This document shows positions 1 to 37,775 of a stretch of DNA of 44,560 nt, piece after piece (position 1 is the first letter of the stretch; the number at the start of each line of letters is the position of its first letter). Position numbers and translations under genes: made by a program. The notes below the pieces were generated by a model that searched no databases, was not told where the DNA came from, and saw nothing but the letters and a program-made list of their open reading frames with translations. Source of the stretch: an uncultured Pseudomonadales bacterium (lineage in GTDB: Bacteria; Patescibacteriota; Microgenomatia; UBA1400; PJMF01); contig CAZNOF010000002.1 of assembly GCA_964574595.1 (NCBI GenBank), forward strand, positions 25,413 through 69,972, read 5' to 3'.

Positions 1-2177
1 CCACCATCACCAATGGCGGTTGCTGGGCCACCTGATGTGTTACAAGTAATCGTGTTTGCCACAGCATCATAGATTGCCCAAACGTTCGCCTTGGAAAGAA
101 TCACGAACTTACCATCTTGTCTTCGGAAAACTACTGAGCCATTTCCATTGAGTCCACAGGTTCCAGATGCTTGATTTCCATCGAGTGAAGGCCCTGCGGT
201 AAAGGCACCAATTGGTCCAGTACCTGTAATGGCTCCTGCTGATGGATTGTAAAGTTGAGTTGTAGAAAGTGCCCCACCAACCAGAATTAAAGCCTGTCCA
301 TCTGTTCTATGTAAAACTGCCGCGCCAACACCCCAGTTTCCACCTGATCCAGATGGGCCAGTGACAAAGGTATCTGCAATTGGATCGTATAACTGAGTCG
401 TTGCTAAGGTTGGAGCGTTAGTAATCAGGTATCTGCCATCTGGACGAAGGAAAGCAACTGAACCGGCTCCTTTTGAGGCAGCTGCTACTGACACCCCTAC
501 GCCAACTGCGCCCATTGGATCAACTAAGGAGGTGGTGGTTGCACCACCACCATGCAAAATTCGGTATAAGCCACCTGGCCTTGGGAGAGCAAGGGCACCC
601 ACGCCAGCCGCATTATTAAGCACCATTGAAGAGTTTGTAAACGTACCTGCTACCGGATCATAAATATCCATACCGGTTCCACCACCTCTGATAACTAAAT
701 AATCACCATCTGCACGAGTAATAGCAAAAGCTCCAGCACCGATATTTCCAGAAGTAGCTGGCTGAGTACTCGTCGTAATAGTGCCTTTGCCACTATTCGG
801 GATTCCGCCAGTGACTGTGTCTGATAGTGACAAGGCATCATTAGTATTTGTTAAGCTTGAGCCTACTGTTCCAAGTGCAAAGTCTGCTGTTGAATCTTTA
901 ACGATGCTGGAATCAGCACCATTAATTGTTAGGCCGCCATTATTTCCGACGGTGAATTTATTGATCCCACTGGTTTGTAACTGCAATAGGGAGCCTGTCC
1001 CAGTGTTATTTACGCTAATTGCCGCCCCACTGCCTGTCTGAGAGATGGCTAAAGCAGCATAGGAACTTCCAGAATTTGCCGAAATATTTACACCGTTGGC
1101 GGCATTGGAAGCTTGAGTAATATCAAGTGCTGCCACGGCCGCCGTCGTATTGGCTTGGGCAAGTTGCAAGAGAAATGCACTCGAGTCTGTACCACCAGAG
1201 CTTGGGTTTGTGAAGACTAATCCGTCATCGGCTGCGGTCAAGGAAATAGTGGCGTTGCTGCCATCTGCGTCTGTGTCATATGCTTGCTGAAGATTTGTGG
1301 AGCCGCCTGCGCCACACCCTGAACAAGATGTGACAGTTAAAGCACCAGATTTAGATACTTTCCAGTTACCACCTGTTCCCACGATGTCATTTAAATTCGT
1401 TCCTGTTGCACCGGACAAGTTAAACTGCAAGCCAGTTTGATCAAATGCGCCGGTTCCAGAAAGTGAAATTGATTGGCCAACAATGGCTCCAGTAATATTG
1501 GTGGCATCTGAAAAGGCAAGTCCTGTTCCGCTGGTTTGTGTAGAAGTAATTGTTTGTGATGGCGCATTACTTGTTAAAACTGTGCCACCGGAGGTACTTG
1601 GGAGGGTAAAGGTGGTGGAATCCGTTCCGTTTAATGAAATTGTGTTATTGACGGTGAATGTTTTATTAGCCGCGATGTTGAGAGTATTGCCGCCATTATT
1701 GGTGACAGCCAAGCCGTTTACTTTTTGAGCGTTGAACGCGTATGGTACGGCGGCGAACTGCAGACGAGGTGTCATTTCAGCATCACCAGTTGCTGCTCCG
1801 GCAGCATTTTTGGTGACCTGAATACCTAGATAGAGGGCGGTGTTATTAAAATCAACCGTGGAGAGTGATGTGACTGAACCTAGCTGAACTTGAAAGACAC
1901 CGTTGGTCACCGTCTGAGATGATTGGGTTTCTGTCCAGATATTCGAACCACCACTGGAAACGTTGTAGAGTTTGAAGACTAACTCGTAGCCAGAACCATC
2001 GGTCACATTAGTGCCGTCAGTATTTGTTAACTTCCCTTGAAAATTAATTCGGTCGTTGATACCAGTAGCTGCCTGAACTGGTGTAGCGAGGAGAACGGAA
2101 TTCAAACTAAAAAGGACAGCAAAAACCACACCTACCACGAGACCCATTTTCTTGATCTTTTTTAGACAATTAAGCAC
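1..2177 (-). CDS. Large secreted fibre/adhesin-like protein with Kelch-like repeats (partial; 3' end lies beyond window start)
   Basis: Not in the ORF track because it runs off the edge. Manual translation gives an open frame of about 725 codons from GTG 2177 (or ATG 2147). It reads: signal peptide ...LATPVQA; N-module INFQGKLTNTDG...EMTPRLQFAAVPYAFNA; Gly/Thr/Ser-rich stalk containing TNLQQAYD; then ~45-aa repeats such as GAGAFAITRADGDYLVIRGG..DIYDP, GAGSVAFLRPDGRYLI..QLYDP and GVGAAVLHRTDGQALILVGG..QLYNP. Confidence 0.85.
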   Translation of the reverse strand, partial: MLNCLKKIKKMGLVVGVVFAVLFSLNSVLLATPVQAATGINDRINFQGKLTNTDGTNVTDGSGYELVFKLYNVSSGGSNIWTETQSSQTVTNGVFQVQLGSVTSLSTVDFNNTALYLGIQVTKNAAGAATGDAEMTPRLQFAAVPYAFNAQKVNGLAVTNNGGNTLNIAANKTFTVNNTISLNGTDSTTFTLPSTSGGTVLTSNAPSQTITSTQTSGTGLAFSDATNITGAIVGQSISLSGTGAFDQTGLQFNLSGATGTNLNDIVGTGGNWKVSKSGALTVTSCSGCGAGGSTNLQQAYDTDADGSNATISLTAADDGLVFTNPSSGGTDSSAFLLQLAQANTTAAVAALDITQASNAANGVNISANSGSSYAALAISQTGSGAAISVNNTGTGSLLQLQTSGINKFTVGNNGGLTINGADSSIVKDSTADFALGTVGSSLTNTNDALSLSDTVTGGIPNSGKGTITTSTQPATSGNIGAGAFAITRADGDYLVIRGGGTGMDIYDPVAGTFTNSSMVLNNAAGVGALALPRPGGLYRILHGGGATTTSLVDPMGAVGVGVSVAAASKGAGSVAFLRPDGRYLITNAPTLATTQLYDPIADTFVTGPSGSGGNWGVGAAVLHRTDGQALILVGGALSTTQLYNPSAGAITGTGPIGAFTAGPSLDGNQASGTCGLNGNGSVVFRRQDGKFVILSKANVWAIYDAVANTITCNTSGGPATAIGDG

Positions 2178-2289: not shown

Positions 2290-4020
2290 ATGTGCTACGC
2301 TTTGACTGTGAAATTTCACCTTCTTCAACATAGGTTTCTACGCGCTTTTTTATGCTTGGCAATTTTTGCAAGTTACTTTGTGACAGCTCCCAAAGCAGAA
2401 GCGGCGATTGCCCATGTTCAAAGCACGTATGACTACAACCTGTCCACAGGTTCGAGTTTTGGCAAAGCGTTTGCTGGCAGCGTGACCGCTGGCAACACGG
2501 TGATTGTGGCAACATCAACTTGGAATGGAGGAGGCACCGCCACGGTTACCTCAGTAACTGATTCTCAAGGAAATGTATACACGAAGGCAGATGAATATCT
2601 GGTAAATGGTGAGAAACTAGCAGTTTGGTACCACATAGGTATAGCTAGTTCAGGGAGTTTAACAGTCACTGCGAACACGGGTCCTCCAGCCGATATTACC
2701 ATCGGTATCCACGAATACAGTGGAATTGCATCGATCGATCAACATACCACCGGAGCAAGTGGTGGAACGGCATTAAGTGCTGGCCCAGTGACTACCACCA
2801 GTGCAGACGAACTGATTTTTGGTGCCTTTAATAACGACACCGGTGGCACGTTTACTCCTACCGTGGGGAGTGGTTTTACTGCCAGAGTTCAACAAAACGA
2901 TAACAGTGCTCACGAAGATCTCTGGACTCAGGACAAAATTGTCTCAAGCATTGGCGCTTATTCATCTGATATGACGGTGACTCCAACGAGTAGTTGGGCT
3001 GCCATCATTGTCACTTTTGCACCATCAGTTGCTACGGGAAATCCATTTAGTACCACCTATAAAATTCAAAGCTATCAATTTGGCGGGGGTGGTTTGGCAA
3101 CAGCAGCAGCTGGCTTATCTAGTCACTACGCCTTGAATGCGAACATTGGCCAAGTAGAAAGTGCCAGTGCGAGCTCTACGCATTACGTCACGAATAATGG
3201 TATTACGTATTTGCAGATGGCAAATGTGCCGCCAGCTCCCACGTTTACTAATCCCTCAAGCTTTGCCGATAAACTCCAAATTGTAATTAACACGGGCGGC
3301 AATCCAAGTGATACCAAGTACGCTATTGCCGTCTCGTCCAATGCCTTCGTGAGTTCCACTCAATACGTGCAGGCTGATAGCACGCTTGGCTCGACACCAG
3401 TATTTCAAACTAATGCAGTCTGGGGTGCTAGTGGGTTTAACGTGATTGGTTTAGCTGCTGGAACGACTTACTCTGCCAAAGTGACTGCCAAGCAAGGTAA
3501 TTTCAGTCAAAGCAATTTTGGCAACTTTGCTCAAGCTTCCACGATTAATACGTCCTTCTCGTTAAGTATCACCCCAAACACCGTCAGTATTGGCTCGTTA
3601 ACGCCTGGCTCAGTTGTGACAGCAGGAACTACCGTCACAAGTACCATCAGTACCAACGGCAGCGGGGGCGGCACAATCTACGTCTACGATTCCAACACTG
3701 GCCTATTAAGTAGCAGTACAAGTTACACGATTAGTTCCGTCAGTAACGACTTGTCTTCTATCAGCGAAGGCTATGGTTTGCGAGGAACGAGCACCAGTCA
3801 ATCCAGTGGTGGTCCAATGCGAATTATCTCGCCGTATAACGGAGCGAGTAACAACGTGGGAATTATTGATTCAACGAAGCGACCTATTTTTGACTCAACC
3901 GGTGCTGCTGTCACCTCAGGAACGGCCACTTTTGAAGTCAAAGCAAAAGCCAGTAATGTGGCAAAAGCCGCCACTGACTACTCTGATATCTTAACGATTA
4001 TTGGTTCGGCAACTTTTTAG
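2290..4020 (+). CDS. Secreted multidomain surface protein with C-terminal WxL/pilin-like domain (candidate tip adhesin)
   Basis: 576-aa ORF; likely start is GTG 2308 (TGcTACGCT-N6-GTG). It has a signal peptide ending PKAEA, an N-terminal beta-rich AIAHVQS domain, an FN3-like middle part, and the C-terminus ...AATDYSDILTIIGSATF, which matches the end of the 5243-6313 protein. Confidence 0.75.
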   Translation: MCYALTVKFHLLQHRFLRAFLCLAIFASYFVTAPKAEAAIAHVQSTYDYNLSTGSSFGKAFAGSVTAGNTVIVATSTWNGGGTATVTSVTDSQGNVYTKADEYLVNGEKLAVWYHIGIASSGSLTVTANTGPPADITIGIHEYSGIASIDQHTTGASGGTALSAGPVTTTSADELIFGAFNNDTGGTFTPTVGSGFTARVQQNDNSAHEDLWTQDKIVSSIGAYSSDMTVTPTSSWAAIIVTFAPSVATGNPFSTTYKIQSYQFGGGGLATAAAGLSSHYALNANIGQVESASASSTHYVTNNGITYLQMANVPPAPTFTNPSSFADKLQIVINTGGNPSDTKYAIAVSSNAFVSSTQYVQADSTLGSTPVFQTNAVWGASGFNVIGLAAGTTYSAKVTAKQGNFSQSNFGNFAQASTINTSFSLSITPNTVSIGSLTPGSVVTAGTTVTSTISTNGSGGGTIYVYDSNTGLLSSSTSYTISSVSNDLSSISEGYGLRGTSTSQSSGGPMRIISPYNGASNNVGIIDSTKRPIFDSTGAAVTSGTATFEVKAKASNVAKAATDYSDILTIIGSATF

Positions 4021-4075
4021 TGGGCTGGAGCAAGCTGATCCTTATGTGGACAAGCACCCAGCTCGTCTGTAGTAT

Positions 4076-5194
4076 ATGGGCATGCGCCGTTCACCCCGCA
4101 ATTTCCTATTTTTTATTTTCTTCTTGGTTAATGCACTCTTTTTTTCGTGCGCTCCGGCTGCTTTTGCACAGGCAAAAACGAAAGATCAAGAAACTGATTC
4201 GCCACCTCTGGATATTACTGCTTCACCAACCTCATTTGATCTGAAAGTCATTCCTGGCTCCTCAGTTACCAAGCAAATTCGGGTTCATAACAACAATGCA
4301 AAACCCATTACGCTTACTGTTTCCGTCAAAAAACTGATCGCAGATCCAAACGGCTCAATCTCGATGACTGATTTCAAAGATGAAAGCTTTCAAAATTGGC
4401 TGACTGTCCAATCCGCCAGTGTTTCAGCCTCGCCAAAAGAATGGGTTAATATTCCGTTCACGGTTTCTGTTCCTCAAGAAGCCTCCTTTGGGTATTACTG
4501 GGCAATTTTGGTTTCACTAGAGAGTCCGCAAAAAGAAATTACTGCTCCTCAAGCCCAGATTACTGGCGCCTTAGCGGTTCCAGTCTTACTAGCCGTGGAC
4601 CGGCCAGACGCTACCTTTGAAGGGAAGCTTTCCAAGTTTCAAACGAGCAGTAAGTTTTACGAATACGTGCCAATTACCTTCCAAACCACCTTTGATAATT
4701 TGAGCAATGTCCACATCAAGCCACAGGGTGACATTTTCGTGAGCGACTGGTTGGGAAGACAGGTAGCGGTTTTACCTGCGAATGAACCACAAGGCAGCAT
4801 TCTACCTGGTTCTAAGAGAACATATGAAGTGAAGTGGGACGATTCATTTATTTCGCTGGAGGAAAAGATGGAAGACGGCAAAGTCGTCACTGATAAAAAG
4901 GGTCAGCCAGTGAGGGAGTACAGATTCCACTTTGATAAGCTACTGAACTTTAGAATTGGAAAATATACGGCAACCACATTACTGGTAATTAGCTCTGATA
5001 CCAAAGATTTATCCTACCAAGCCACAACTGATTTTTGGGTCATTCCGTGGAAAATAATCATCGGGGTAATCCTTTTTGTGATCCTTGCAGGAGTAGGTTT
5101 ACTCAACACGCTGAAGTCAATTATCAGAACCCTAAAAAGGATTGTTCAAAAGTTCAAAAAGAAAGAAGTCATAGATCAAGAAGCTCAGCATTGA
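4076..5194 (+). CDS. DUF916/DUF3324-like (WxL-interacting, CscA-like) membrane-anchored protein, paralog 1
   Basis: Signal peptide, two Ig-like domains with motifs HIKPQGDIF, ILPGSKRTY and FRIGKYTAT, then a C-terminal TM helix and basic tail. Confidence 0.75.
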   Translation: MGMRRSPRNFLFFIFFLVNALFFSCAPAAFAQAKTKDQETDSPPLDITASPTSFDLKVIPGSSVTKQIRVHNNNAKPITLTVSVKKLIADPNGSISMTDFKDESFQNWLTVQSASVSASPKEWVNIPFTVSVPQEASFGYYWAILVSLESPQKEITAPQAQITGALAVPVLLAVDRPDATFEGKLSKFQTSSKFYEYVPITFQTTFDNLSNVHIKPQGDIFVSDWLGRQVAVLPANEPQGSILPGSKRTYEVKWDDSFISLEEKMEDGKVVTDKKGQPVREYRFHFDKLLNFRIGKYTATTLLVISSDTKDLSYQATTDFWVIPWKIIIGVILFVILAGVGLLNTLKSIIRTLKRIVQKFKKKEVIDQEAQH

Positions 5195-5220
5195 CAGTCA
5201 GTACAAAAAATTGTTAGAGT
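5191..5220 (+). promoter_or_regulatory. Sigma70-type promoter for the 5243-6313 gene
   Basis: TTGACA (5191-5196), 18 nt, TGtTAGAGT extended -10 (5212-5220). Confidence 0.5.
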
Positions 5221-5242
5221 TAATCACTACCGATTGGAAATT

Positions 5243-6313
5243 ATGTTTGTGCCTACCCAAATCAGCAAGAAAAAACTTGTTAAAGTTAGTCAACTTGTAC
5301 TCATTGCAGTACTGTTGATGCAACCTCTCTTTATTTTCGTTCCTCAAGTGCACGCGGTGGCTCCTACAGGATTTTTACGTCTTGATCGTATGGCTACTTC
5401 TACGGCAACTGGTGGAACAGTCTGTTTTACGCCACAGACAGTTGCGACAGAAGCTAAAGTAGTGGTTACTTTTCCCGCCACCGGTGCCTCTGCGGATGCC
5501 ACCCATTTTGGTGTGAATGCAACAGCGAGCAACTGGACTGTTACTACAACCAATTTACCAACTGGTGCCACAATCTGGCCAACCATTGCAACTGCTTCTA
5601 ACGTGACTGGTGGAGCCGTTACATTTGCAGGTGGTGACCTGACAGTGGGTACTCAGTATTGTTTCAACTTTACCGGTACTAGTACGTTATCAACTCCAAC
5701 CAGTGCTGGTACAAACTTTACGGGCACGATTCAGACACAAACCGGAGCTTCAGCTCCCATTGATACGATTAATTTCGCTACCTCAGTCATTTCAAATGAC
5801 CAAGTGACTGTGACCGCCACTGTGCCTTCAACATTCACCATGACTTTGAACACGAACACAGCTGCTCTAGGTTCACTGCCTACAACAGGTGCTCCTGCAA
5901 CTGCAGCAGTCACGATGACTGTCAGTACCAATGCTAATAACGGCTGGTTATCATGGGTTAAAAACACCGGTGCCAACAGTACCTTAACTTCTGTGACCAC
6001 GTCAGATACCTCGATATCAAGCGGAGCCTATACAACTGGATCTGGAAACGTACACTCGTTAAGTAGTGCGGCAGGATATGGTATGAGTGCTGCAGCGGGA
6101 ACGGGATCACCGACAATCGCCACAGAGTATGCAGGTTCGTCTACGACCTTTGGATCATTAGATAGTACCAAGTTTGAACAGTTTGCCTCAAAGAATGCGC
6201 CTGCCAGTGGTAACACCGTCACCATTACATTTGGAGCGGAAGCAGCCGCTACAACCAAAGCGGGAACTGACTACACGGACACCGTTACTATCACGGCAGC
6301 AGGTCAATTTTAA
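5243..6313 (+). CDS. Secreted WxL/pilin-like subunit (candidate major fibre subunit)
   Basis: ORF opens at TTG 5234; ATG 5243 preferred. Signal peptide ends PQVHA. The protein is Thr/Gly/Ala-rich with two Cys in the N-domain. The C-domain carries TVSTNANNGWLSWV and ends GTDYTDTVTITAAGQF. No membrane anchor. Confidence 0.75.
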   Translation: MFVPTQISKKKLVKVSQLVLIAVLLMQPLFIFVPQVHAVAPTGFLRLDRMATSTATGGTVCFTPQTVATEAKVVVTFPATGASADATHFGVNATASNWTVTTTNLPTGATIWPTIATASNVTGGAVTFAGGDLTVGTQYCFNFTGTSTLSTPTSAGTNFTGTIQTQTGASAPIDTINFATSVISNDQVTVTATVPSTFTMTLNTNTAALGSLPTTGAPATAAVTMTVSTNANNGWLSWVKNTGANSTLTSVTTSDTSISSGAYTTGSGNVHSLSSAAGYGMSAAAGTGSPTIATEYAGSSTTFGSLDSTKFEQFASKNAPASGNTVTITFGAEAAATTKAGTDYTDTVTITAAGQF

Positions 6314-6333
6314 AGAGTGAATCATCCTCTTTT
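6312..6333 (+). terminator. Weak hairpin directly after the subunit stop codon (possible partial terminator)
   Basis: AAAGAG-N9-CTCTTT followed by T; short stem only. Confidence 0.25.
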
Positions 6334-6354
6334 GAATAGATCAAACTATCCTGT

Positions 6355-7434
6355 ATGATACGAGCATCTATGACCAAGCTGCTTCAAAAATGCCTCTTTG
6401 TTCTCCTTTTGATTACTGGTTTTTCTGTCATTTTTGCCCCTGCTTCTTTTGCACAAACTAAGGATGGTTTAGATATCACCATTAGTCCAAGTGTGTTGGA
6501 ATTAAGCGGCAATCCTGGGGATGTTCTCCAGCAAAAATTTAGAATTCGCAACAACAGTTCTTCACCAGAAGAATTGTCGATTAATATTGGCAAGTTAGAA
6601 GCGCACAGTGAAACTGGGCAAGTCGTGCCTATTCAAACCCAGCCGGGAGATACAGTTCCAAGCTGGATGTCATTTGAATCGCCCACCTTCACGGCTTTGC
6701 CAAAAGAGTGGAAGGATGTTTCGTTTCAAATCGCTATCCCTAAAGATGCCGCTTTTGGCTACGCGTTCGCTATCCGCATTTCTCAATTGCCTAATAAAGA
6801 GCAACCTGACACTGTCAGTGCCAAGCTCGTTGGCGAGTTGGTCTTACCAGTTCTCTTGAATGTGCGGAGTGAGGGATCTAAAGCGGAACTGAAGTTGCTT
6901 TCCTTTAAACCTGATAATGTTATTACCGAATACATGCCCACTACTTTTAATATTAAGTTGGCAAATACCGGCAATGTTTATATTAAGCCTCAAGGTGATA
7001 TTTTCATTCGATCCAGTCAGGGATCTGACGAGGCAACGATCGATATTAATGCCAACTCAGGGGCAATTTTGCCAGGTGGTACACGCACCTTTCCAGTGGA
7101 GTGGTCAGATGGGTTTCTAGTACGAGAACCAGTTATGGAAGATGGTTCGCCTGTCGTTGACGCAAAAGGGAAACCTCAGACACATCTGAAAATTAATTGG
7201 AATAAAGTTACATCGTTCAGAATTGGCAAATACACGGCAACTGCTCTCGTTGTTTATGATAATGGCGAGCGGGATGTTTCATTAGAATCCACTACTGACT
7301 TTTGGATCATTCCTTATCGATTAATTGGGGGAATTTTGGTAAGCGTTATTTTGATTGTCATTCTCTTTAGAATCATCTTGAAGTGGTACATTGCTAAAGA
7401 AATTAAAAAAAGATCAGCACAACCAATAACATGA
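6355..7434 (+). CDS. DUF916/DUF3324-like membrane-anchored protein, paralog 2
   Basis: Likely start is ATG 6370. Signal peptide; motifs YIKPQGDIF, ILPGGTRTF and FRIGKYTAT shared with paralog 1; C-terminal TM helix. Confidence 0.75.
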   Translation: MIRASMTKLLQKCLFVLLLITGFSVIFAPASFAQTKDGLDITISPSVLELSGNPGDVLQQKFRIRNNSSSPEELSINIGKLEAHSETGQVVPIQTQPGDTVPSWMSFESPTFTALPKEWKDVSFQIAIPKDAAFGYAFAIRISQLPNKEQPDTVSAKLVGELVLPVLLNVRSEGSKAELKLLSFKPDNVITEYMPTTFNIKLANTGNVYIKPQGDIFIRSSQGSDEATIDINANSGAILPGGTRTFPVEWSDGFLVREPVMEDGSPVVDAKGKPQTHLKINWNKVTSFRIGKYTATALVVYDNGERDVSLESTTDFWIIPYRLIGGILVSVILIVILFRIILKWYIAKEIKKRSAQPIT

Positions 7435-8366
7435 AGTTCTTCTCTAGACTCACTTTTTCACTCCTAAGTGGAGTCATTTTCTTAGTCATGACGAGTCCAA
7501 TATCGGCAGCTTCTCCTCAACCTACGCCGTCAACAGATTTTGGAGTTTCCGTAAGCCCATCATTAATTCAACTCGATCTCGATCACAACAAGCCGTTGAC
7601 CAAGATCACCTACACCAATCATACCAAGCAAGATATTCAGCTTTTTTTGAGTGCCTCAGACTTTACTGAATTAGAGGATGGTTACAAATTATCTTTTCTG
7701 TCACAAAAAGATCCTGAAAACTATAAATACCGATTATCATCATGGATCTCATTTGGTCAAAATACCTTTGTCTTGAAGCCCGGGCAATCACAAGACGTGC
7801 TAGTACTGATCAATGCCAGTCAGTTAAGCCCAGGAGCTCACTATGGCACTATTTTGGCCAAGATTGAGCAGGGAAAGGGAGATGAGACGATTCAAATTCA
7901 AGGCATCCTTTCTAGCCTTTTATTTGTTCGTACTAGTACTGGCACAGAGAAGGAGTCTGCCTCAATTCAAACCTTCACCCAAGTTGAAAATCTATTGGGA
8001 TTTCCGGCAAATTTTTCTCTTCGCTTTAATAATACGGGTGAAACCACACTTACGCCCTATGGTCTAGTTGAAATCAGAGATGTCTGGGGAAATTTGGTAG
8101 CCAAAGGAACTTTGAATCAGGACTCTTTGCAAACATTGCCAGAAAGTGTTCGCCGATACGACATACCAGTTAAACACATTGCGCCGGTTTTATTTCCTAG
8201 CAAGTATCATGCCACGTTTACCATGCACTATGGCAAAAAACCAGATTATTTGAAGAGTGAATTGACTTTTTATTCGATTGGTAGCTGGCCATTTTTCTTG
8301 TTGCCATTTGTGTTTGTTGGAATTGTTTGGGCTAGTGTAAAACGACGGAAGACAAAAACGGATTAA
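7431..8366 (+). CDS. DUF916/DUF3324-like membrane-anchored protein, paralog 3 (shorter)
   Basis: 4-nt overlap with the upstream stop. Signal peptide; motifs VSVSPS, LTPYGLVEI, TLPESVRRY and PSKYHATF; C-terminal TM helix and basic tail. Confidence 0.7.
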   Translation: MKFFSRLTFSLLSGVIFLVMTSPISAASPQPTPSTDFGVSVSPSLIQLDLDHNKPLTKITYTNHTKQDIQLFLSASDFTELEDGYKLSFLSQKDPENYKYRLSSWISFGQNTFVLKPGQSQDVLVLINASQLSPGAHYGTILAKIEQGKGDETIQIQGILSSLLFVRTSTGTEKESASIQTFTQVENLLGFPANFSLRFNNTGETTLTPYGLVEIRDVWGNLVAKGTLNQDSLQTLPESVRRYDIPVKHIAPVLFPSKYHATFTMHYGKKPDYLKSELTFYSIGSWPFFLLPFVFVGIVWASVKRRKTKTD

Positions 8367-8994
8367 AGAATTCATCAACCTGATCCATGGTATATCCCGT
8401 CACAGAAAAACTCAGGACAGATCCTTTGTAAAAAAGAAAAGCCACTTTCTGTGCCATATCATCTTCTTTTGAAAATCCCTGGCCTGCAACGGAATCGATA
8501 GTAATTGGAAACGGTTTATACGTTTCGGGATCTAGTGACCTGACACGGTAACCAGAAGCATCCTCAAGTTTTTGAACATCTGGGTTGCGATTTATTTGAA
8601 CACTGACCACGATGTGTTTGATTGGCAAGCTATAGGAAAAGTTGTCTATCATATTTTTATCGGCAGTTACTTTGATTTTCTTTTTAGCTGATGGTGACGC
8701 ATCTGGCTCGGTTGTGGGATGGAGCGAATCTTCTAAAATATGGGCATTCCCAGGGTAGGTATAATCGGCAAGAGGCGTTGTACGGGTCAAGTTTTCAATG
8801 GGTTCGTCGCTTTGACCTACATTCACAGATCTTCCCAAGATTTTTTCTAAAGCCTTACTTTTTTGCGTCTCTGTCAGGACACTTTTAGGAGGTGCCGGAA
8901 AAAGAAAGATTTTTATTCCAATCCCGACTATGATCAGAATCATCATTCCAAGTCCTAAAAAAAGAATGCGTTTTTTTCCGGTAGGTAGCTGCAT
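8332..8994 (-). CDS. Hypothetical single-pass membrane protein (possibly PsbP-like ectodomain)
   Basis: 223-aa ORF; ATG 8994 follows TGcTATTAT. N-terminal TM helix. The C-terminal pattern GQGFSKEDDMAQKVAFLFYKGSVLSFSV...FFNPFLSSV is reminiscent of Mog1/PsbP-fold proteins (weak). Confidence 0.6.
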   Translation of the reverse strand: MQLPTGKKRILFLGLGMMILIIVGIGIKIFLFPAPPKSVLTETQKSKALEKILGRSVNVGQSDEPIENLTRTTPLADYTYPGNAHILEDSLHPTTEPDASPSAKKKIKVTADKNMIDNFSYSLPIKHIVVSVQINRNPDVQKLEDASGYRVRSLDPETYKPFPITIDSVAGQGFSKEDDMAQKVAFLFYKGSVLSFSVTGYTMDQVDEFFNPFLSSVVLH

Positions 8995-9058
8995 ATCTAT
9001 CAAATAATAGCAGAGATTCCGTCTGGTTTAGCGAGGAAATATTTAGTATCCTAATCTC

Positions 9059-11509
9059 ATGTATTTTCGAAGGCGACTTGCCTCCAGTCTTTTTTTGCTT
9101 AGTCTTATTACGGGAACAATTACCTTTGGATTATTACGTCAACAAGTGAAGGCAGTTACTCAAACTGTCGCGGTCACCGCTTCTGTTCTGGCAAAGCCAA
9201 TTGATTTCCAGGGTGAGATTGTGTCAGATGTAAGTGGAAATATTGAGCAAAATACTGTTGTAACCTATACGATTACTTATGGTTCTCGGCTACTTTATGG
9301 AGATAGTATAAAAGTTGAAGCCCAGTGGTATCCTGGTTTGCCCGATGGCTCTTCGCCATCAGATATTTTTGAGTATGTCCCAGGTAGTGCCAGCCTTGCT
9401 TATGGAAGTACTGCCCCTTTTATTGACTCAGTTAATCAAAAAATTAAGTGGGATATTCCAAATTTGCCTGCCAATACAACTGGCCAAACTGTCACTTTTC
9501 AGCTAAAGACTAACAGTTCCTATACCGGAAATAACAAAGTAGATTTGCCAGTTCGGGTCAGAGTGATCTCACGAACGGCTTCGTCCACTGACCAGGTAGC
9601 AACAGTTAGTTACAAGTATCATGGCTCTCCTGTTGTGATTACCGCTACCAATGAACCTGCTTCTTCACCCACTCCGACCCCGGTTGTCTCTGCAGCTCCC
9701 ACTGTTTCACCGTCACCTAGTAGCATAACTACTACAAGTAGTACTTCAACAAAAAAATTAACGACTGCTTCCGTTGTTGTGAAAAAGGCAGTACCTAGCC
9801 TGACGCTACTCTCGCTGGTGGATAACGCTGTTAAACTTGCCGTTCAGACTCCTGAGGCTAGTACGATCAACGTTTCGTATGGAACAACTCCTTTGGTGAC
9901 AAAAGAAGTACCTTCTGATGAAACGTTATCTTCCCTGCATACTGTTGTTTTAAATAACCTCGAGCCAAATACTGATCATTTTGTTCAGGTTGAAGCGATA
10001 AATTCTTCAGGCGAGGTGACTAAATCTGACGTGTATGTCTACAAAACGGCTGTGACTTCCGAACAACCACAAGTTCAGTTACCGACTGTTACCTTTCTTA
10101 CTTCAAATGTGACTCTTTTTTCCTCGGACAACATATTAAATGACACTTCAAGTGAAAGTTCATCGACGAAAGCTGAATCAACACCAATTATCGTGTTGCC
10201 GAAAAATACTCTTTATTCATTTCATTTTGCTTCTACAAAAACCCTGTCTATTAAAAAAGTCTTAGTTCTTATTAGAGATGCACAAGTGCTCGGAGCATCT
10301 ACAGAACAAGGAAATCAGTCCACTGCTAACACCTTGAGCACCCAACTTATTTTAGCAAAAAATGGCAACTTTGAAGGAAATCTAAAATCACCAGCTAAAC
10401 CAGGAAAGTACGAAGTCTTCGCCCAGATATTCGACACTGATGGGAATATTGTTGAAAATAAGATAGCTGATCTACGTGTCTCTTTGCCTTTCCGAGTGAT
10501 TGCCAAGGATTCAAGAAACCCTATTGAAAAAGCTGAGGTTTTGCTTTCGTATTGGTCTGATAAGACAAAGTCATTTGTTTTACTACCACCACAACTTTTT
10601 TCATCTGCTAACCCCGATTATACTGACGTTGAAGGAAACCTGGCTAACTTAGCGCTGCCTCAAGGAAAATATCAAGTGAAGGTAAGTGCCACTCGGTATA
10701 AAACAGCAACTGTGGATTTTACAATTGGCCCAGACCAAGAACAAGATTACCCAAATATTATTCTCGAGCGTGAGTCATTTAACATCGTTACAATGTTAAA
10801 ATATTTTACTGAAGTTTTCCGTGACTTTGCCGACAAAAGAGTTACGCATCTTAGAACAGTCGCACAATCTTCACGATTTTTTGAGCTAAATATTTTAATC
10901 GTGACTGGTACATTAGTTTTTCTGACCCTTATTTCCTTTTCGACTCGAATCAGAATTCCACTGCAAAAATTACCAAAGTATCTTTGGCATCGAACCAGAA
11001 TTTTATTTGCTGGGAAGGATATAACTGAATTGGTAAAGGGTATTGTGGTTGATAAATTAACAGGACAACCAGTGAGTGGTGCAGATGTCTTTTTTGTTGA
11101 TGAGAGGAAGAGACAAATCGTTGCTCATAAGAGAACAGGTACAGACGGGAAATTTAGTTTTGTAAAAGTTTTAAGTACTTTGGAAGCCATTGAAGTTATG
11201 GCCGAGGGATATGAACCATTTGCTCTGGATGCTGATTCATATGTTTGTGAGGAATCGCACGAACATGTACTGGAGTTAGAGAAAAGTACTCGTCAAAAAC
11301 AACTTTGGGAAGATGGTCTTTCCTTCTTTGAAAAATTCTTAGGTCTAATTTTTGAGTTCATTCTGATTCAGACAATTATTTTTGAGTTAACATTTGGATT
11401 CGTATTAGGTTGGCCAAAAACAGCCCCGTTTTTTGTCATCTCTGTCGTGAATTTAGGGTTATGGTTGCTACATCTGACCCACCGTCGCACTGAACAATCA
11501 GTTGGGTAA
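9059..11509 (+). CDS. 816-aa multidomain Ig/FN3 membrane-anchored surface protein
   Basis: N-terminal signal/anchor; DUF11-like domain (VTYTITYG..IKWDIPNL..TVTFQLK); Ser/Thr/Pro linker; FN3-like domain (HTVVLNNLEPNTDHFVQV); carboxypeptidase-regulatory-like domain; TM helix; a second such domain (VKGIVVDKLTGQPVSGADV); two C-terminal TM helices. Confidence 0.75.
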   Translation: MYFRRRLASSLFLLSLITGTITFGLLRQQVKAVTQTVAVTASVLAKPIDFQGEIVSDVSGNIEQNTVVTYTITYGSRLLYGDSIKVEAQWYPGLPDGSSPSDIFEYVPGSASLAYGSTAPFIDSVNQKIKWDIPNLPANTTGQTVTFQLKTNSSYTGNNKVDLPVRVRVISRTASSTDQVATVSYKYHGSPVVITATNEPASSPTPTPVVSAAPTVSPSPSSITTTSSTSTKKLTTASVVVKKAVPSLTLLSLVDNAVKLAVQTPEASTINVSYGTTPLVTKEVPSDETLSSLHTVVLNNLEPNTDHFVQVEAINSSGEVTKSDVYVYKTAVTSEQPQVQLPTVTFLTSNVTLFSSDNILNDTSSESSSTKAESTPIIVLPKNTLYSFHFASTKTLSIKKVLVLIRDAQVLGASTEQGNQSTANTLSTQLILAKNGNFEGNLKSPAKPGKYEVFAQIFDTDGNIVENKIADLRVSLPFRVIAKDSRNPIEKAEVLLSYWSDKTKSFVLLPPQLFSSANPDYTDVEGNLANLALPQGKYQVKVSATRYKTATVDFTIGPDQEQDYPNIILERESFNIVTMLKYFTEVFRDFADKRVTHLRTVAQSSRFFELNILIVTGTLVFLTLISFSTRIRIPLQKLPKYLWHRTRILFAGKDITELVKGIVVDKLTGQPVSGADVFFVDERKRQIVAHKRTGTDGKFSFVKVLSTLEAIEVMAEGYEPFALDADSYVCEESHEHVLELEKSTRQKQLWEDGLSFFEKFLGLIFEFILIQTIIFELTFGFVLGWPKTAPFFVISVVNLGLWLLHLTHRRTEQSVG

Positions 11510-15033: not shown

Positions 15034-15171
15034 GCGGAGAGGGAGACAGCTTCGCTGCATTAGGCAGGCTCATTTCATTCGCTTGCCGGCAGGATTCAAT
15101 AATCACTCGCTCAGCCCATTCTGCCCGTTAGCCTCTGCTGCGCAGAGTTACCGGTCAGAGCGGAGAGGGAG
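15034..15171 (-). repeat. 12-bp direct repeat of the tRNA-Ser 3' end flanking a 114-bp element
   Basis: GCGGAGAGGGAG occurs at 15034-15045 and 15160-15171 (minus strand CTCCCTCTCCGC, the tRNA acceptor 3' strand). Confidence 0.75.
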
Positions 15172-15247
15172 GGATTCGAACCCTCGGTGACCTTGCAGCC
15201 ACAGTAGTTTTCAAGACTACCGCACTAAACCACTATGCGACCTCTCC
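15161..15247 (-). tRNA. tRNA-Ser(TGA)
   Basis: Folds as a cloverleaf: acceptor GGAGAGG/CCTCTCC; anticodon stem GTAGT/ACTAC with loop CT-TGA-AA; long variable arm; GAGGG-TTCGAAT-CCCTC; discriminator G; CCA not encoded. Upstream TGgTAAAAT at 15283-15275. Confidence 0.97.
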
Positions 15248-16067: not shown

Positions 16068-16139
16068 GCACCCGTAGTTCAACGGATAGAATGAAGGTTT
16101 GCGGAACCTTTGATCCAAGTTCGATTCTTGGCGGGTGCA
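16068..16139 (+). tRNA. tRNA-Arg(GCG)
   Basis: Acceptor GCACCCG/CGGGTGC; anticodon stem AAGGT/ACCTT with loop TT-GCG-GA (anticodon at 16101-16103); T arm CCAAG-TTCGATT-CTTGG; no CCA. Upstream TGaTAAAAT at 16028-16036. Confidence 0.95.
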
Positions 16140-16154
16140 CATCAAAAAGCATAA

Positions 16155-22070: not shown

Positions 22071-22159
22071 GGAAGCGTGCCGGAGCGGTTAAACGGCCAG
22101 GTCTCGAAAACCTTGGGTTCGCAAGGACACGACGGGTTCGAATCCCTCCGCTTCCGCCA
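22071..22159 (+). tRNA. tRNA-Ser(CGA)
   Basis: Acceptor GGAAGCG/CGCTTCC, discriminator G, CCA encoded; anticodon loop CT-CGA-AA; long variable arm with GCAA loop. It has a C-U mismatch at the base of the anticodon stem and an apparent bulged C in the T stem. TATAAT at 22053-22058. Confidence 0.88.
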
Positions 22160-24620: not shown

Positions 24621-25913
24621 TTATTGAAACAAATGACTGAACCAAGCATTCGCTTGATACCAAAAGTCTGGGTTCTCAGGTGTCAAAGAAATATGAGCAT
24701 TCTCGATCAGTTCTGAAACAGTAAATGTGGAGTTTTTGTATCCAGGGGCAGTTACCGTGATTGACTCATCTGTGTTGAGATAGGGAACTTGGAAGTTTCG
24801 ACCGACCGCGAGCACGTTATCTCGATCCGAGCGAAAGGTAACCTGATCAACTGTGTTTCCGGCAGTATTAGTAATGGTGCCAACTACAACTTTGGGAGTA
24901 TAGAATTTTTGAATCACCGCTACGGCTGGTTTGGCATCACCATGATCGTTCCAAATGGCGGTTGAACCACCCATATCCGTCCAGTAATTCAGTCCGACTA
25001 AGTGAGGATTCGCTGATAACAACTTGAGGACGTCTTTCACCCATTGAGCTTGTTCGTCGTCCGTCATGGTTCCGTGAATGTCAGGAATGGGAGCGCCAAA
25101 CTCGCCTAATACAACCTGCCCGCCACTACGGGAGGCAACTTCAGTGACATCGTCATTCAGTTGAGTTGGATCTTTTACATAGTGATCGATGACAACCAAG
25201 CCACCTAAAGCAGTCGTTGTCGGTTTGTCCATGACTAAGTCAGCTACATCTTTATTCATGGAATTGAAGTTGACTTGGATACGCTTATCTTGCGCTTTAA
25301 ATTCATCTGTGAGCATTTGATACTCGCGAATAAGGAATTCTCGGTGGCCTTGCACATCACCAGTCTTCCGAGGATCTCCTGGCCCTCCATTTTCACATTC
25401 CGGACAGGCAGAAAAAATATCTCCGTCTTCAAATAAATGCGGGTTCTTCTCTACAAATACTTTAGTCTTCTGGAAGTGTTCATCACGGGAAATAGTTGGA
25501 TAGCTAAACCAACCTTCCCAGCCGGACCAATTTCCTCTGAACCAGACGCGGAGATGGTACTTTCGAGCGGCAGTGACCCAAGTAGTGAGAACTGGCAAAA
25601 ATTCCTCATCATAGGGAGTGCCTATCGCAATATACGTCGCGCCAGTTTCAGAGATGGCTTTTGCTTGCTGATCAGAGATTGTTTGAAGTGTTTTAATGTC
25701 TGACAGATACTGTCTACTTGGATCTCTTGAAAACTTCATGGTATCAATGGACTGAAAGTTCCACCAGGAAGCTGTCTGTTGTGCAAATGACCGCTGGGTA
25801 GCCGATTTTTTCACACTAGTTCCTAGAATAAGCACGGCCATGACCGTGATCAGTAAAATCCCTAGATAGAATGATTGATGTAGTCTCACTAATAAATATT
25901 GTAGCAAATTCAC
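24621..25913 (-). CDS. Membrane-anchored glycoside hydrolase-like (clan GH-A type TIM barrel) protein
   Basis: N-terminal TM helix; candidate acid/base ECENG and nucleophile LGEFG; C-terminal carboxypeptidase-regulatory-like domain; last gene of the glycan operon. Confidence 0.65.
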   Translation of the reverse strand: MNLLQYLLVRLHQSFYLGILLITVMAVLILGTSVKKSATQRSFAQQTASWWNFQSIDTMKFSRDPSRQYLSDIKTLQTISDQQAKAISETGATYIAIGTPYDEEFLPVLTTWVTAARKYHLRVWFRGNWSGWEGWFSYPTISRDEHFQKTKVFVEKNPHLFEDGDIFSACPECENGGPGDPRKTGDVQGHREFLIREYQMLTDEFKAQDKRIQVNFNSMNKDVADLVMDKPTTTALGGLVVIDHYVKDPTQLNDDVTEVASRSGGQVVLGEFGAPIPDIHGTMTDDEQAQWVKDVLKLLSANPHLVGLNYWTDMGGSTAIWNDHGDAKPAVAVIQKFYTPKVVVGTITNTAGNTVDQVTFRSDRDNVLAVGRNFQVPYLNTDESITVTAPGYKNSTFTVSELIENAHISLTPENPDFWYQANAWFSHLFQ

Positions 25914-25915
25914 GT

Positions 25916-27544
25916 CTACTTCTGCTTTCCCAAGATTGGTTGCGTATTGAGGGTAGGAAGATATTCCGGTTTGAGTTCGTAAATATCAGCAAATGGATAG
26001 GATCTCACTAATGAATACTTATACAGTTGTTCTGACTTATTGACTAATTTAAATGTTTGGTCATTTGGGTCATTCGTTCTCATGACAATCCAGCGTGCCC
26101 AACGGTCAGGTTGAGTGGTGCCATTGAGCCAGTAAGTGCCGGTACCTTCGTGAATGAACTTCTTCATTGGTAACCCAGAAGAGAAAATAATTGCATCGTG
26201 AGAAGCGGCAGAAATCAACACAAAGCCCGGTGTGTTCCCAGCATGTTCTTGCAACCAGCCACTCACTTCCGTCACGTTCTTCTGACTTGATCCCACGCGA
26301 CCATCATCAACTGTCACGGCGTCAAAATTGACTATAGAAAAAAAGGTGACAAAGAGTAACAGACTAATAATCAGCCAACGTGATGCTTTCAGTTTGTCTA
26401 TTAAGACTCCGACAAAAATGGCAATGGAGGGAACCATCATGACACCATAGCGAACGTTAAACCACGTATTTCCATTCAAGCCCTGAATAAAGAGCACAGA
26501 GAAGCCAAAGTACAGAGCGATGATATTAAAAATCAAAGGTGCTAGGAGTGCAAGAGAAGCGAGTCGAATTGTCGATGATACTTTTTTGTTAACAAGCAGA
26601 ATGCAGGCACCCACAAAACTAAGTAAAACAGTGAACGTACCACTGTTATAAATCATGGCATACCAATAGGTGCTGATGGACTGACCCCAGTTCTTCTGTG
26701 TTATTAACACACCTGCATCGGCTAATTGCAGTTGTTGTGCATGGGCAGAGTAAGGACCAAAAGCAAAGTAGAGTGGGTCTTTAAAGATTGCTGCATTCCA
26801 AACTACCCACAAAAATATTCCCAGTCCAGCTAAACTACAAAACAAAATGAAAATACCCTCAGCCTTTTTAAGACCACCATTTCTAAATCCATGATATGAA
26901 ACAAGGATTGCTGACATCAAAAATAAGAACCAACCATCATAACGGATGAGCGTGGACAGCATAATCCAGAATGCGACTTTGACTAAATTCAGAATTGAAT
27001 CAGTTTCGTGATAATTGAGAAGTTCGTATACGGCAATAGTCATCGTGAAGATGAGCAAAAGCTCGGTCATGGCTGTTGATTGAAGGTACAAAATATTTAA
27101 ATTTGTGACAAAGATGGCTACACCAGCTAATCGGCCAATCATGCCCACTTTGAGTTTCTCTAAAATCCGATAAATTAAATATCCAGTAGCTACAAATGAG
27201 ATCATTGACTGAATTGCTCCTGATAAACCAGAGTGCCACATGAAGTCATTCCAAATTGTTAAGACCATCAATATATGAGGCAAAGGCAACCAGACAGAAC
27301 CTAACTGTGCCATACCAGGTTTGAGACCTTCAACTACCCGACGACCAATGTCTAGGTGAGATCGGGCATCGTTGTATGCTAGACCAAGTCCATTTCTATA
27401 GAAAATAATGTAACAAGCTACTGAAATAATTGATAAAAAGATCAACAAAAGCGGCACGGCGTGTTTTGTTAGGAAGCCTTGTAATAAAGTCCAAGGATTT
27501 TTAGGAATAGAAAATGAAGTGGTAGGGTTTAAGAGGCTAAACAT
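25916..27544 (-). CDS. GT-C (PMT/ArnT/GT39-like) polytopic glycosyltransferase
   Basis: First external loop YNDARSHLDIGRR...LGSVWLPLPH, AMTE and LIRYDGW motifs; about 11 TM helices; soluble C-terminal domain. Confidence 0.8.
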   Translation of the reverse strand: MFSLLNPTTSFSIPKNPWTLLQGFLTKHAVPLLLIFLSIISVACYIIFYRNGLGLAYNDARSHLDIGRRVVEGLKPGMAQLGSVWLPLPHILMVLTIWNDFMWHSGLSGAIQSMISFVATGYLIYRILEKLKVGMIGRLAGVAIFVTNLNILYLQSTAMTELLLIFTMTIAVYELLNYHETDSILNLVKVAFWIMLSTLIRYDGWFLFLMSAILVSYHGFRNGGLKKAEGIFILFCSLAGLGIFLWVVWNAAIFKDPLYFAFGPYSAHAQQLQLADAGVLITQKNWGQSISTYWYAMIYNSGTFTVLLSFVGACILLVNKKVSSTIRLASLALLAPLIFNIIALYFGFSVLFIQGLNGNTWFNVRYGVMMVPSIAIFVGVLIDKLKASRWLIISLLLFVTFFSIVNFDAVTVDDGRVGSSQKNVTEVSGWLQEHAGNTPGFVLISAASHDAIIFSSGLPMKKFIHEGTGTYWLNGTTQPDRWARWIVMRTNDPNDQTFKLVNKSEQLYKYSLVRSYPFADIYELKPEYLPTLNTQPILGKQK

Positions 27545-27545
27545 A

Positions 27546-30500: not shown

Positions 30501-30815
30501 TGTTAATTTATCGCCAGCAACGAGTTCTGTACTAAAAGTTGTTGAGTTTTTCTCAACATGTTCAGATACGAGCTGAGGAGACTGGACGGAAAAGGCTCTC
30601 CCTTTCCATGGACTCAATTTCCCAACAGCTGATAACGCATGTAACTCATTGAGCAAGAAGTAATTTTCAATATCTGGTAACAAAAAAGTATGTCGTTTAG
30701 TAAACACTTTTTTTGTGGCACTCTTTTGTAATTTTCCTAATTCTACTCGCGATTTTTTATCAACTCTGAGGATTCGATTAATGATGCTGGTAAGGTGGAG
30801 GATATTAGAAAACAT
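27546..30815 (-). CDS. 1089-aa fusion: APH/choline-kinase-like + CE4 polysaccharide deacetylase + GT-C membrane domain
   Basis: Kinase HGDLDSDNIL...LADWE...DPLYDL; CE4 CYHN, ITFDDGY, FHTATH, FAYPKG; then about 520 aa of polytopic GT-C-like sequence (ELSPERGRF, WGDPYGGWAFGSRYMIP). Confidence 0.85.
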   Translation of the reverse strand: MFSNILHLTSIINRILRVDKKSRVELGKLQKSATKKVFTKRHTFLLPDIENYFLLNELHALSAVGKLSPWKGRAFSVQSPQLVSEHVEKNSTTFSTELVAGDKLTFSEPDVVIKSLVDIFGFLTNIQMKLHKTEEAKQIATQSTFSLLLRGILYGLQAGVRNPSLLLQTLRSTIVFVRLYTPTLFKRIQPALIHGDLDSDNILVGGKTLLLADWENAVFSDPLYDLAQIPRLYQKQLGINRAVDFCSLFLKSSEEKRRWKALSIYGTLKSLALDAKNSHMSESAKTSLFDFVPTKSVFVKIYTIAFTLLETIYKLLPFLYKPTEKAIILCYHNIGLNNWQFSTDADEFSEQISFLNKTFKISKLSQVVKSGSGVAITFDDGYQSVIEFAFPLLKKLRKNATIFMVGNPEKAQRDEMNNQLPLLDDKELRVLAKEDWEIGFHTATHADLSSLSPIGLSAEIGRGKKDFEKRTKIQTRYFAYPKGYYSDITMAAVKNAEFEAAFTVDDRPFSKADDKYLFHRISIENNMSPGFLKTLLTPTGLRLWSVFMSIIRLKKNVSEKINAALKVFLLPISFFKKTGTLWFALICMLILVAALRGLKGNPTSSELNSDRWMDNGPLELSPERGRFALTYSLAEDHSFHFSLPIAKFALPDVATANGYFVSLFAPTVSYIVMPGYILGKTLGYSQVGSFAVISLFAVFNAVLIRAIAIRLGARPSAATIAAMFFLFATPAFPYAVTLYQHHISTFLILFSIYTLLRHKSPWALAIVWFCCAISISVDNPNLFLMFPIGLFALGRVVNVEDKIKKYQINIHWAGLVTMAVMVLPIAFFMYFNQMSYGNPFQLAGTASSAKNVSELHTPDIVDIGNQQIPDNEKTEAKTESRNALGFFDTRQLPNGLYEHFLSLDRGMITYTPIILIGFIGLLLLSKRNIGYTNLLAGVIGADILLYSMWGDPYGGWAFGSRYMIPAYSILAILLGQVISHWRKNILILFTILVIGMYAVSVNTIGAVTSNRNPPKVEVLAIEAMSHVQERYTFTRNMQMLNANKSKSFIFQEYAHQYLTAWEFTEVIIGVIGFVLLTQFMALFINRNRD

Positions 30816-30816
30816 A

Positions 30817-32635: not shown

Positions 32636-32642
32636 GATAGTC

Positions 32643-34346: not shown

Positions 34347-34347
34347 A

Positions 34348-36158: not shown

Positions 36159-36167
36159 AGGGTATCT

Positions 36168-37771: not shown

Positions 37772-37775
37772 AAAA

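Follow-up and report, generated by a model that had tools for sequence, protein, structure and literature searches.

Which kind of surface system do five neighbouring genes, all with products annotated as hypothetical, encode in a bacterium of the candidate phyla radiation (CPR, or Patescibacteria)? We addressed this question for genes A to E (positions 2290-8366) of a 44,560-nucleotide (nt) stretch of DNA, hereafter the window, which covers positions 25,413 to 69,972 of the forward strand of contig CAZNOF010000002.1 (GenBank assembly GCA_964574595.1). The CPR is a very large, mostly uncultivated group whose members apparently live attached to other cells, and to our knowledge the attachment machinery known for them is essentially that of type IV pili. 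An initial annotation of the window had taken the five genes for a candidate usher-less fibre system of the donor-strand type. Our analysis leads to another explanation, which we consider on balance probable: the operon would be a CPR variant of WxL/WxLIP (Csc) display, in which secreted clients (A and C) are held by membrane-tethered partners (B, D and E) through β-strand complementation. The WxL systems used as a reference are those of the Csc type described in Lactobacillales and in Listeria (Siezen 2006; Hassan & Williamson 2022/2023; PDB 9i25, 9i1y).

The five open reading frames (ORFs) all lie on the + strand, with 55 nt between A and B, 39 nt between B and C, 41 nt between C and D, and a 4-nt overlap of D and E (Table 1). 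Their coordinates, strand and order (long subunit, partner, short subunit, partner, partner) are those given by the initial annotation. The start of C is probably the ATG at 5243, because the alignment with the orthologue of a close relative (locus L001) begins at residue 4 of C; the candidate starts of A are the ATG at 2290 and the GTG at 2308. A and C each possess one N-terminal signal peptide and no hydrophobic segment in the remaining sequence, a pattern that agrees with their earlier description as secreted proteins without an anchor. B, D and E combine a signal peptide with a C-terminal transmembrane helix followed by a basic tail and are type-I membrane proteins, so that their ectodomains are predicted to be directed outward from the cell's own membrane. 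The two immunoglobulin (Ig)-like domains attributed to each of the three partners, together with the C-terminal helix, are borne out. The clients are related to each other, residues 322-576 of A being 27% identical to residues 67-359 of C (E = 3.6e-24). Among the partners, B and D are paralogues over their full length (35% identity, E = 2e-77), whereas the paralogy of E to either is more remote (21% identity, E = 1e-8). The description of A and C as 'WxL/pilin-like' did not hold up: it was a label of the annotation itself, and neither protein matches any Pfam model. Scans against PHROGs and NCBIfam gave no matches.

B, D and E are true homologues of DUF916/WxLIP proteins, as had been proposed. 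B matches PF06030 (DUF916, now WxLIP_PGBD) with 36.1 bits for a gathering cut-off of 27.3 (E = 7.6e-9), and the same model matches 24 of 47 members of the B/D family. Searched against PDB sequences, the B/D family profile retrieves EfmWxLIP1 at E = 7.6e-5, with an alignment that crosses the loop region of domain 1. E forms its own orthologous group, with orthologues 39-46% identical in distant loci, and has the motifs GNVH..P.G and LP.S.R in common with D.

The fold of D was modelled with AlphaFold2 (AF2) from a 47-sequence alignment. The model (predicted local distance difference test, pLDDT, 92; predicted template modelling score, pTM, 0.79) consists of two β-sandwich domains and the transmembrane helix; it thus includes a second Ig-like domain, and its alignment with WxLIP by Foldseek extends over about 300 columns. 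The best match in the PDB is 9i25_C, the WxLIP of Enterococcus faecium locus A bound to a long WxL protein (E = 6.8e-11), followed by 9i1y. Next comes CsuC, bound to CsuA/B or to CsuE in the matching structures (E ~1e-9, TM-score 0.53-0.58 normalised to the chaperone); YadV, CfaA and Caf1M also match, the TM-scores of the chaperones lying between 0.5 and 0.58 with this normalisation. The predicted partner fold resembles that of chaperones, as anticipated, with the archaic CsuC first among the chaperones of chaperone-usher systems. RbmA and other tandem-Ig proteins score like the chaperones, and the PapD/ASH-type domains of CEP192 and hydin are also among the matches. Judging from the model, the chaperone likeness of D appears to be real at the level of the fold, though not exclusive. 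Domain 1 is closed by a long hairpin with pLDDT blocks of 86 and 71; within the ectodomain, confidence is lowest in its 16-residue loop. This region aligns with EfmWxLIP1 in the family-profile alignment. In published AF2-multimer models, a hairpin strand of WxLIP runs parallel to a long WxL strand and fills a gap in the WxL sandwich (PMC10599100); by presumed equivalence, the second, hydrophobic strand of the D hairpin is a candidate for a donated strand.

The clients have a different composition, with 51-58% Thr, Ser, Ala and Gly and only 6-8% charged residues, whereas that of the partners is ordinary. The AF2 model of C (57 sequences; pLDDT 92.9, pTM 0.68) shows two β domains and is confident along its whole length, including the first mature strand (residues 45-50, pLDDT ~88) and the last one (351-357); a disordered N-terminal extension is absent from it. 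The C family is marked by a conserved mature N-terminal motif, Y-x-R-L-D-R-M, in which R49, D51 and R52 are invariant or nearly so, by the pair Cys64/Cys143, by TNA-NGW-x-W-V and by the terminal A(T/S)DY(T/A)DTLTVxAAGxF. In this last strand D346, Y347 and G357 are invariant and F359 is at least 90% conserved. The near-identity of the ends of A and C, reported at the outset, matches the translations, and the terminal motif proves strict throughout both families. A final Phe is found in 86 of 88 C-family and 68 of 69 A-family members, and DYx[DE][TI] begins exactly 14 residues from the end in 85/88 and 58/69, respectively; for the pooled families, Phe or Tyr is the very last residue in 154 of 157 proteins and the motif holds its exact place in 143. 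No Trp occurs in the terminal strand. Among the 50 best Foldseek matches of the C model in the PDB we found generic tandem β-sandwiches with TM-scores of at most 0.28, such as integrin legs, a cohesin dyad, FimH, SafD, CfaE and PapG, the fimbrial adhesins scoring 0.2-0.28, and no type V pilin. Mean-field direct coupling analysis of 205 C-family sequences, applied to the pairing of the first and last strands in a sheet, yielded mainly gap artefacts (effective sequence number 131), and its result was set aside. A is longer than its relatives: the family consensus (70 members) starts at about residue 250, and the A proteins of other loci, of about 360 aa, lack residues 39-247. This region, which has no Pfam match and no sequence match in the PDB, is likely a lineage-specific binding head.

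Relatives of the operon are widespread. An exhaustive search of 1.84 billion representatives with the C-family profile returned 1261 proteins at E<=1e-3, of which 703 reach E<=1e-10, and 133 genomes encode a relative of C in a scan of one genome per species. C has hundreds of relatives, none of which is annotated; those with a named source belong to Levyibacteriota, Moranbacteria, Andersenbacteria and the 'Patescibacteria group'. For synteny, ORFs were called in 79 genome loci from different CPR species and assigned to the window families by phmmer. The families occur together in 79 of 79 loci, so that the conserved co-occurrence across the CPR that a synteny survey was to look for is indeed found. 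The order is nearly universal, A (~360 aa)-C (~350 aa)-[C]-D (1-2 copies)-E (~310 aa), and the arrangement is far beyond chance. C is present in all 79 loci, A in 71, D-type proteins (best match D) in 65, B-type proteins (best match B) in 14 and E in 58, the missing members being mostly at contig ends; there are two to three tether-type genes per cluster versus two to three clients. The window departs from this common layout by the additional N-terminal domain of A, of about 200 aa, and by B, a D-type duplicate inserted between A and C. A 584-kb contig of GCA_040384245.1 carries a close counterpart of the entire window region, with the same gene order and proteins 72-94% identical to those of the window. 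Several lineages (L044, L056, L061, L079) have the genes divided between two units of opposite orientation, one with C and D and the other with A and E, which hints at dedicated client-partner pairs. Mirror-tree analysis, in which A co-varies with C and D with E, did not resolve this pairing. The metagenome-assembled genomes from third-party annotation records that bear the operon are often titled 'uncultured Gammaproteobacteria', 'Bdellovibrionales' or 'Pseudomonadales' (L009, L010, L013-L017 and others). These titles look unreliable, and the operon is the same as in named CPR genomes.

The exhaustive search also revealed large proteins whose C-terminus consists of the C module in its complete mature form, with the YxRLDR strand at one end and the terminal F at the other. 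It ends a 1113-aa subtilase with CHB_HEX/Fn3_assoc domains (P0218), a 1641-aa protein with five TIG and twelve NHL repeats (P0217), a second protein with five TIG domains (P0221) and a Big_5/Big_13 protein (P0234). The genes of P0217 and P0218 (loci L087 and L088) are both away from any WxLIP-like gene. Reuse of the whole module at the extreme C-terminus of protease, propeller and Ig-repeat proteins suggests that it is a general cell-surface docking module in the CPR, and is easier to reconcile with a docking domain than with a major pilin. In these fusions the first strand of the module is internal, which shows that it does not need a free N-terminus.

WxL/WxLIP-type display, as we propose it for the CPR, draws on the gene content and topology of the operon, the WxLIP homology and fold of its partners, the conserved gene order, the strict motif at the client C-terminus and the recurrence of the module on other proteins. 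A and C would be exported through Sec as β-sandwich proteins rich in Thr, Ser, Ala and Gly and devoid of an anchor of their own, while the two-Ig ectodomains of B, D and E would be fixed to the bacterium's own membrane by the C-terminal helix. The hairpin of partner domain 1 (residues 135-170 of D) would donate a β-strand to the C-terminal domain of a client, and this donation would both stabilise the client and retain it on the cell surface. A might then present its Fn3 and variable N-terminal domains outward, and proteins encoded elsewhere (the subtilase, TIG/NHL and Big-domain proteins) could be displayed through the same module and dock. The contact between client and partner, the donation of the strand and an adhesive or display role are put forward here by analogy.

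Several results weigh against this interpretation. The WxL model PF13731 matches neither A nor C and none of 57 C-family members, and alignment of the C family with a PF13731-positive actinobacterial WxL profile by hhalign, global or local, gives a probability below 1%. The WxL chain of 9i25 is absent from the 50 best structural matches of the C model. On the side of the partners, DUF3324 is matched by none of those in the window and by none of the 47 B/D-family members. The clients are also more conserved than the partners (mean distance 0.49-0.52 for A and C, 0.63 for D, 0.71 for E), a pattern that exposed adhesins do not usually show and that would suit a structural polymer or a lattice just as well. 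A hidden Markov model (HMM) of actinobacterial WxL gave no signal against 2045 ORFs of the CPR loci. With no signal from Pfam, hhalign or HMM, WxL homology of the client domain was not retained at the sequence level. This negative is itself weak, because in a control the actinobacterial profile misses the E. faecium WxL chain in the PDB and so cannot link the two WxL groups. Separately, a Streptomyces olivochromogenes contig (L007) carries an actinobacterial WxL cluster, in which a Big_3_5+WxL protein is accompanied by a DUF916 protein of 618 aa, an LPXTG protein, another Big_3_5 protein and a sortase. The WxL proteins of this cluster have ...AGTYTATLTLTAI at their end, with Leu replacing Trp, which shows that Trp can be lost from the terminal WxL motif even in accepted members of the family.

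Could the operon assemble a fibre, as the initial annotation had it? B, D and E would then be tethered chaperones to which C and A are bound through complementing strands, and C would polymerise by strand exchange into a thin pilus with A, or one of the large fusion proteins, at its tip. We regard this as unlikely, despite a number of features that recommend it. The fold of D resembles that of chaperone-usher chaperones, the low-charge composition of A and C is pilin-like, their stronger conservation would suit a polymer, and their terminal strand recalls that of CsuA/B, although the hhalign score is weak (E = 0.011, probability 3.9%). The C model also finds two-domain fimbrial adhesins (FimH, CfaE, SafD, PapG), at low TM-scores, and the fusions could serve as alternative tips. 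However, the C model shows no disordered N-terminal extension that could take part in donor-strand exchange. Its first mature strand is confidently placed, carries the conserved charged residues R49, D51 and R52 instead of the alternating hydrophobic pattern of a donor, and is internal in the fusion proteins, whose protease, propeller and Ig-repeat portions themselves suit a docking domain better than a major pilin. Moreover, subunit genes do not outnumber the chaperone-like genes, their ratio being near 1:1, and no usher-like or wall-spanning component is conserved among the neighbours in the 79 loci. Neither the missing match to SCPU nor the TM-scores of 0.2-0.28 to fimbrial adhesins speak for a pilin, and the literature searched describes no fibres formed by homologous WxL systems. 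A sortase-assembled pilus was rejected: A and C end in F with neither a transmembrane segment nor a tail, and the ORFs of the 79 loci include no conserved sortase homologue and no convincing LPXTG signal, a sortase adjoining the operon in L005 only.

The conservation of the clients could equally reflect a two-dimensional coat, in which C, with A, would form a lattice resembling a surface layer (S-layer) on membrane stalks made by D and E, much as SlaB holds SlaA in Sulfolobales, and into which the fusions would insert enzymes and binders. C is indeed highly conserved and widespread (1261 representatives, 133 species genomes), the composition is low in charge and rich in Thr and Ser, the partners are anchored at their C-terminus, the module is reused on enzymes as in proteins with S-layer homology (SLH) domains, and polysaccharide and envelope genes lie nearby both in the window and in L003. 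Such a coat nevertheless seems improbable to us: evidence of lattice formation is lacking, C is small for an S-layer protomer, and the comparison with SlaA/SlaB is one of function only. A further reading would make A, C, D and E accessory machinery which folds, anchors or presents a giant secreted protein of more than 2000 aa encoded next to them. When the remaining ORFs were clustered, the family of this protein was found to adjoin the operon in 56 of 79 loci, either upstream and divergent or directly downstream, and in the window its gene starts 143 nt upstream of A on the opposite strand. Its orthologue in L001 is a protein of 2262 aa that combines a LamG-like stretch with a long region rich in Gly and a tail of Pro, Ser and Thr; it matches neither Pfam nor PHROG families. 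Yet the giant protein does not share the C-terminal module, since the HMM of the CPR C-domain does not match it and its C-terminus is rich in Pro, Ser and Thr. Its gene is also missing from the flanks in 23 loci, though many of those contigs end early. We therefore hold this accessory role to be very unlikely.

What is new here is a widespread, unannotated CPR operon, probably a version of WxL/WxLIP-type surface display; the WxL/WxLIP principle itself was already known. Conservation of the operon reaches from Levyibacteriota through Moraniibacteriota and Andersenbacteria to Saccharibacteria, with all its products annotated as hypothetical, and it appears to define a general route for the display of proteases, β-propellers and Ig-repeat stalks on the CPR surface. 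It extends the WxL/WxLIP system well outside the Firmicutes and opens to direct test a structural link of WxLIP with the chaperones of chaperone-usher systems. In the open literature searched, no link was found between WxL and the CPR or between DUF916 and chaperone-usher systems, and 'WxL' and 'donor strand' appear together only in a general review of 2013. The fibre proposal could be extended to make the operon a monoderm, usher-less relative of archaic chaperone-usher pili, in which tethered PapD-like proteins would release C and A into the fibre; for this we see only a small chance. Were it true, a single ancient principle of assembly would have branched into WxL/WxLIP clusters, the CPR system and Csu-type pili. 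CPR cells would possess, besides type IV pili, a second and previously unrecognised class of surface filament, and this new pilus class would give a clue to the origin of chaperone-usher assembly.

The surroundings of the operon contain further recurrent genes. F and G, which follow E (Table 1), recur beside the operon in Levyibacteriota-type loci, and orthologues of G are present in L001 and L004. Other small single-pass membrane proteins occupy the same flanks, S1 in 25 of the 79 loci and S2, of LytR_C type, in 24. In many Moranbacteria-type loci the S2 protein, of about 200 aa, is encoded directly upstream of A (for example L066:6029-6655), and WxLIP-like proteins of about 550 aa fused to a LytR_C domain also exist (P0160-P0171). 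Together, these fusions and the flanking LytR_C protein link the system to the cell wall. Genes for type IV pilin-like proteins, with an N-terminal GFTLIE-type motif, stand immediately upstream of the operon in 14 loci (including L015, L030, L034, L039, L041, L049, L050, L058, L063, L064, L071, L075 and L078), and PilB/PilC-like genes are found near the operon in about 9 loci.

Positions 24621-43683 of the window (- strand) hold a long envelope-polysaccharide island with repeated GT2 pairs. It also encodes a DegT aminotransferase, a GT4 protein, two proteins of 567 and 1089 aa that combine an APH-like kinase with a polysaccharide deacetylase, and a protein of 1594 aa in which two GT2 domains are fused to a Polysacc_synt flippase-like region and a GT4. 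Among public sequencing runs, searched for evidence of expression, none contains this DNA. A scan of the operon region for promoters and terminators gave counts at background, sigma-70-like sites being as frequent as in shuffled sequence. The best sigma-70-like match on the + strand is TTGACA-18-TAGAGT with a TG element at 5191-5220, just upstream of C, and this site might give C a promoter of its own.

Table 1. Features of the five-gene operon and of its surroundings in the window, with the basis of each assignment.
Feature	Position (nt)	Strand	Residues	Description and basis
Giant secreted protein, 5' part	1..2147	-		Divergent from A; signal peptide, start MGLVVG...ATGINDRINFQGKL, open frame
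A	2290..4020	+	576 aa	Large secreted anchorless client; ORF, single N-terminal hydrophobic segment
A signal peptide		+	1-38	Hydrophobic segment
A extra N-terminal domain	2404-3030	+	39-247	Only in the window and close relative L001 among loci examined
A SxNY hairpin region		+	250-311	Family consensus
A Fn3-like domain		+	312-403	Weak fn3 match, residues 343-404 only
A shared C-terminal domain		+	420-576	Homology to C
A terminal strand	3976..4017	+		DYSDILTIIGSATF-COOH; translation
B	4076..5194	+	372 aa	WxLIP/DUF916-type membrane-tethered partner, D-type paralogue; PF06030 match, transmembrane helix
B transmembrane helix	5024-5128	+	317-351	Hydrophobicity
C	5234..6313	+	359 aa	Small secreted anchorless client; ORF, AF2 model, family alignment
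C domains	5234..6313	+	1-41; 42-190; 191-359	Signal peptide; N-domain; C-domain; AF2, alignment
C terminal strand	6269..6310	+		DYTDTVTITAAGQF-COOH; translation, family alignment
D	6355..7434	+	359 aa	WxLIP/PapD-like membrane-tethered partner; AF2, Foldseek, profile search
D domains	6355..7434	+	41-170; 179-318	Domain 1; domain 2; AF2
D long hairpin closing domain 1	6757..6864	+	135-144; 145-160; 161-170	Strand; loop; hydrophobic strand (GELVLPVLLN); DSSP, pLDDT
D transmembrane helix	7315-7416	+	321-354	AF2; hydrophobic residues 315-350 by hydrophobicity
E	7431..8366	+	311 aa	Divergent WxLIP-like partner; paralogy to B/D, orthologues
E transmembrane helix	8268-8342	+	280-304	Hydrophobicity
F	8332..9003	-		Small N-terminally anchored membrane protein, accessory; F-type in 16/79 loci
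G	9059..11509	+	816 aa	Secreted protein with CarboxypepD_reg domains and three C-terminal transmembrane segments, accessory; G-type in 7/79 loci
tRNA Ser-TGA	15160-15247	-		
tRNA Arg-GCG	16068-16140	+		
tRNA Ser-CGA	22071-22159	+		

Among known systems, archaic (sigma) chaperone-usher pili, such as Csu (chaperone CsuC, SCPU-family pilin CsuA/B) and CupE, offer one point of comparison. The predicted partner fold resembles their two-domain PapD-like chaperones (Foldseek E ~1e-9, TM-score 0.53-0.58 normalised to CsuC), and the similarity to a Csu pilin strand pointed out in the initial annotation is real: the clients end in ...KA..DY.DTL.V...F-COOH and CsuA/B (PDB 7zl4_A) in KAQGDYKDTLLVTVNF. As far as sequence comparison can tell, this likeness is confined to the terminal strand. 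SCPU (PF05229) matches neither A, C nor any of 57 family members, searches of PDB sequences with the C-family profile and with the last 52 residues return no Csu pilin, and the similarity over the whole domain is not significant. Homology of the clients to SCPU/Csu pilins was rejected on these grounds. The CPR system also differs from Csu pili in having neither an usher nor an outer membrane: no usher-like family was found among the window genes scanned, and no large β-barrel candidate among the conserved neighbours. In addition, its chaperone-like protein is permanently tethered to the membrane instead of soluble, and no N-terminal donor extension is evident in its client.

The use of the C module on protease, propeller and Ig-repeat proteins encoded elsewhere recalls SLH domains, which are non-covalent cell-surface docking modules reused on many proteins, and partners anchored by C-terminal transmembrane helices recall SlaA/SlaB, which form a canopy-stalk S-layer. 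Both likenesses are functional only.

The system that the operon resembles most in its layout is the WxL cluster, which comprises a small WxL protein, a large WxL protein and a DUF916-DUF3324-transmembrane protein (PMC9772566, PMC10599100), and the pairing known from Firmicutes Csc clusters, to which the operon had been compared, is recognisable in it. As in those clusters, a small and a large secreted protein without an anchor have in common a domain that is always C-terminal, and the partners consist of a signal peptide, two Ig-like domains and a C-terminal transmembrane helix, B passing the PF06030 threshold. The best PDB matches of the D model are E. faecium WxLIP, alone and bound to long WxL, and domain 1 of D bears a long hairpin at the site of the predicted donor strand of WxLIP. 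In contrast, the CPR client domain has neither the Trp-x-Leu motifs nor a PF13731 signal, the module of C comprises two domains (~315 aa), and the sequence of the second partner domain does not match DUF3324. Neither LPXTG proteins nor sortases are conserved in the CPR loci. Each CPR cluster has two to three partners, including the separate E-type lineage, and a giant secreted protein is its conserved neighbour, in hosts that belong to the CPR and not to the Bacilli.

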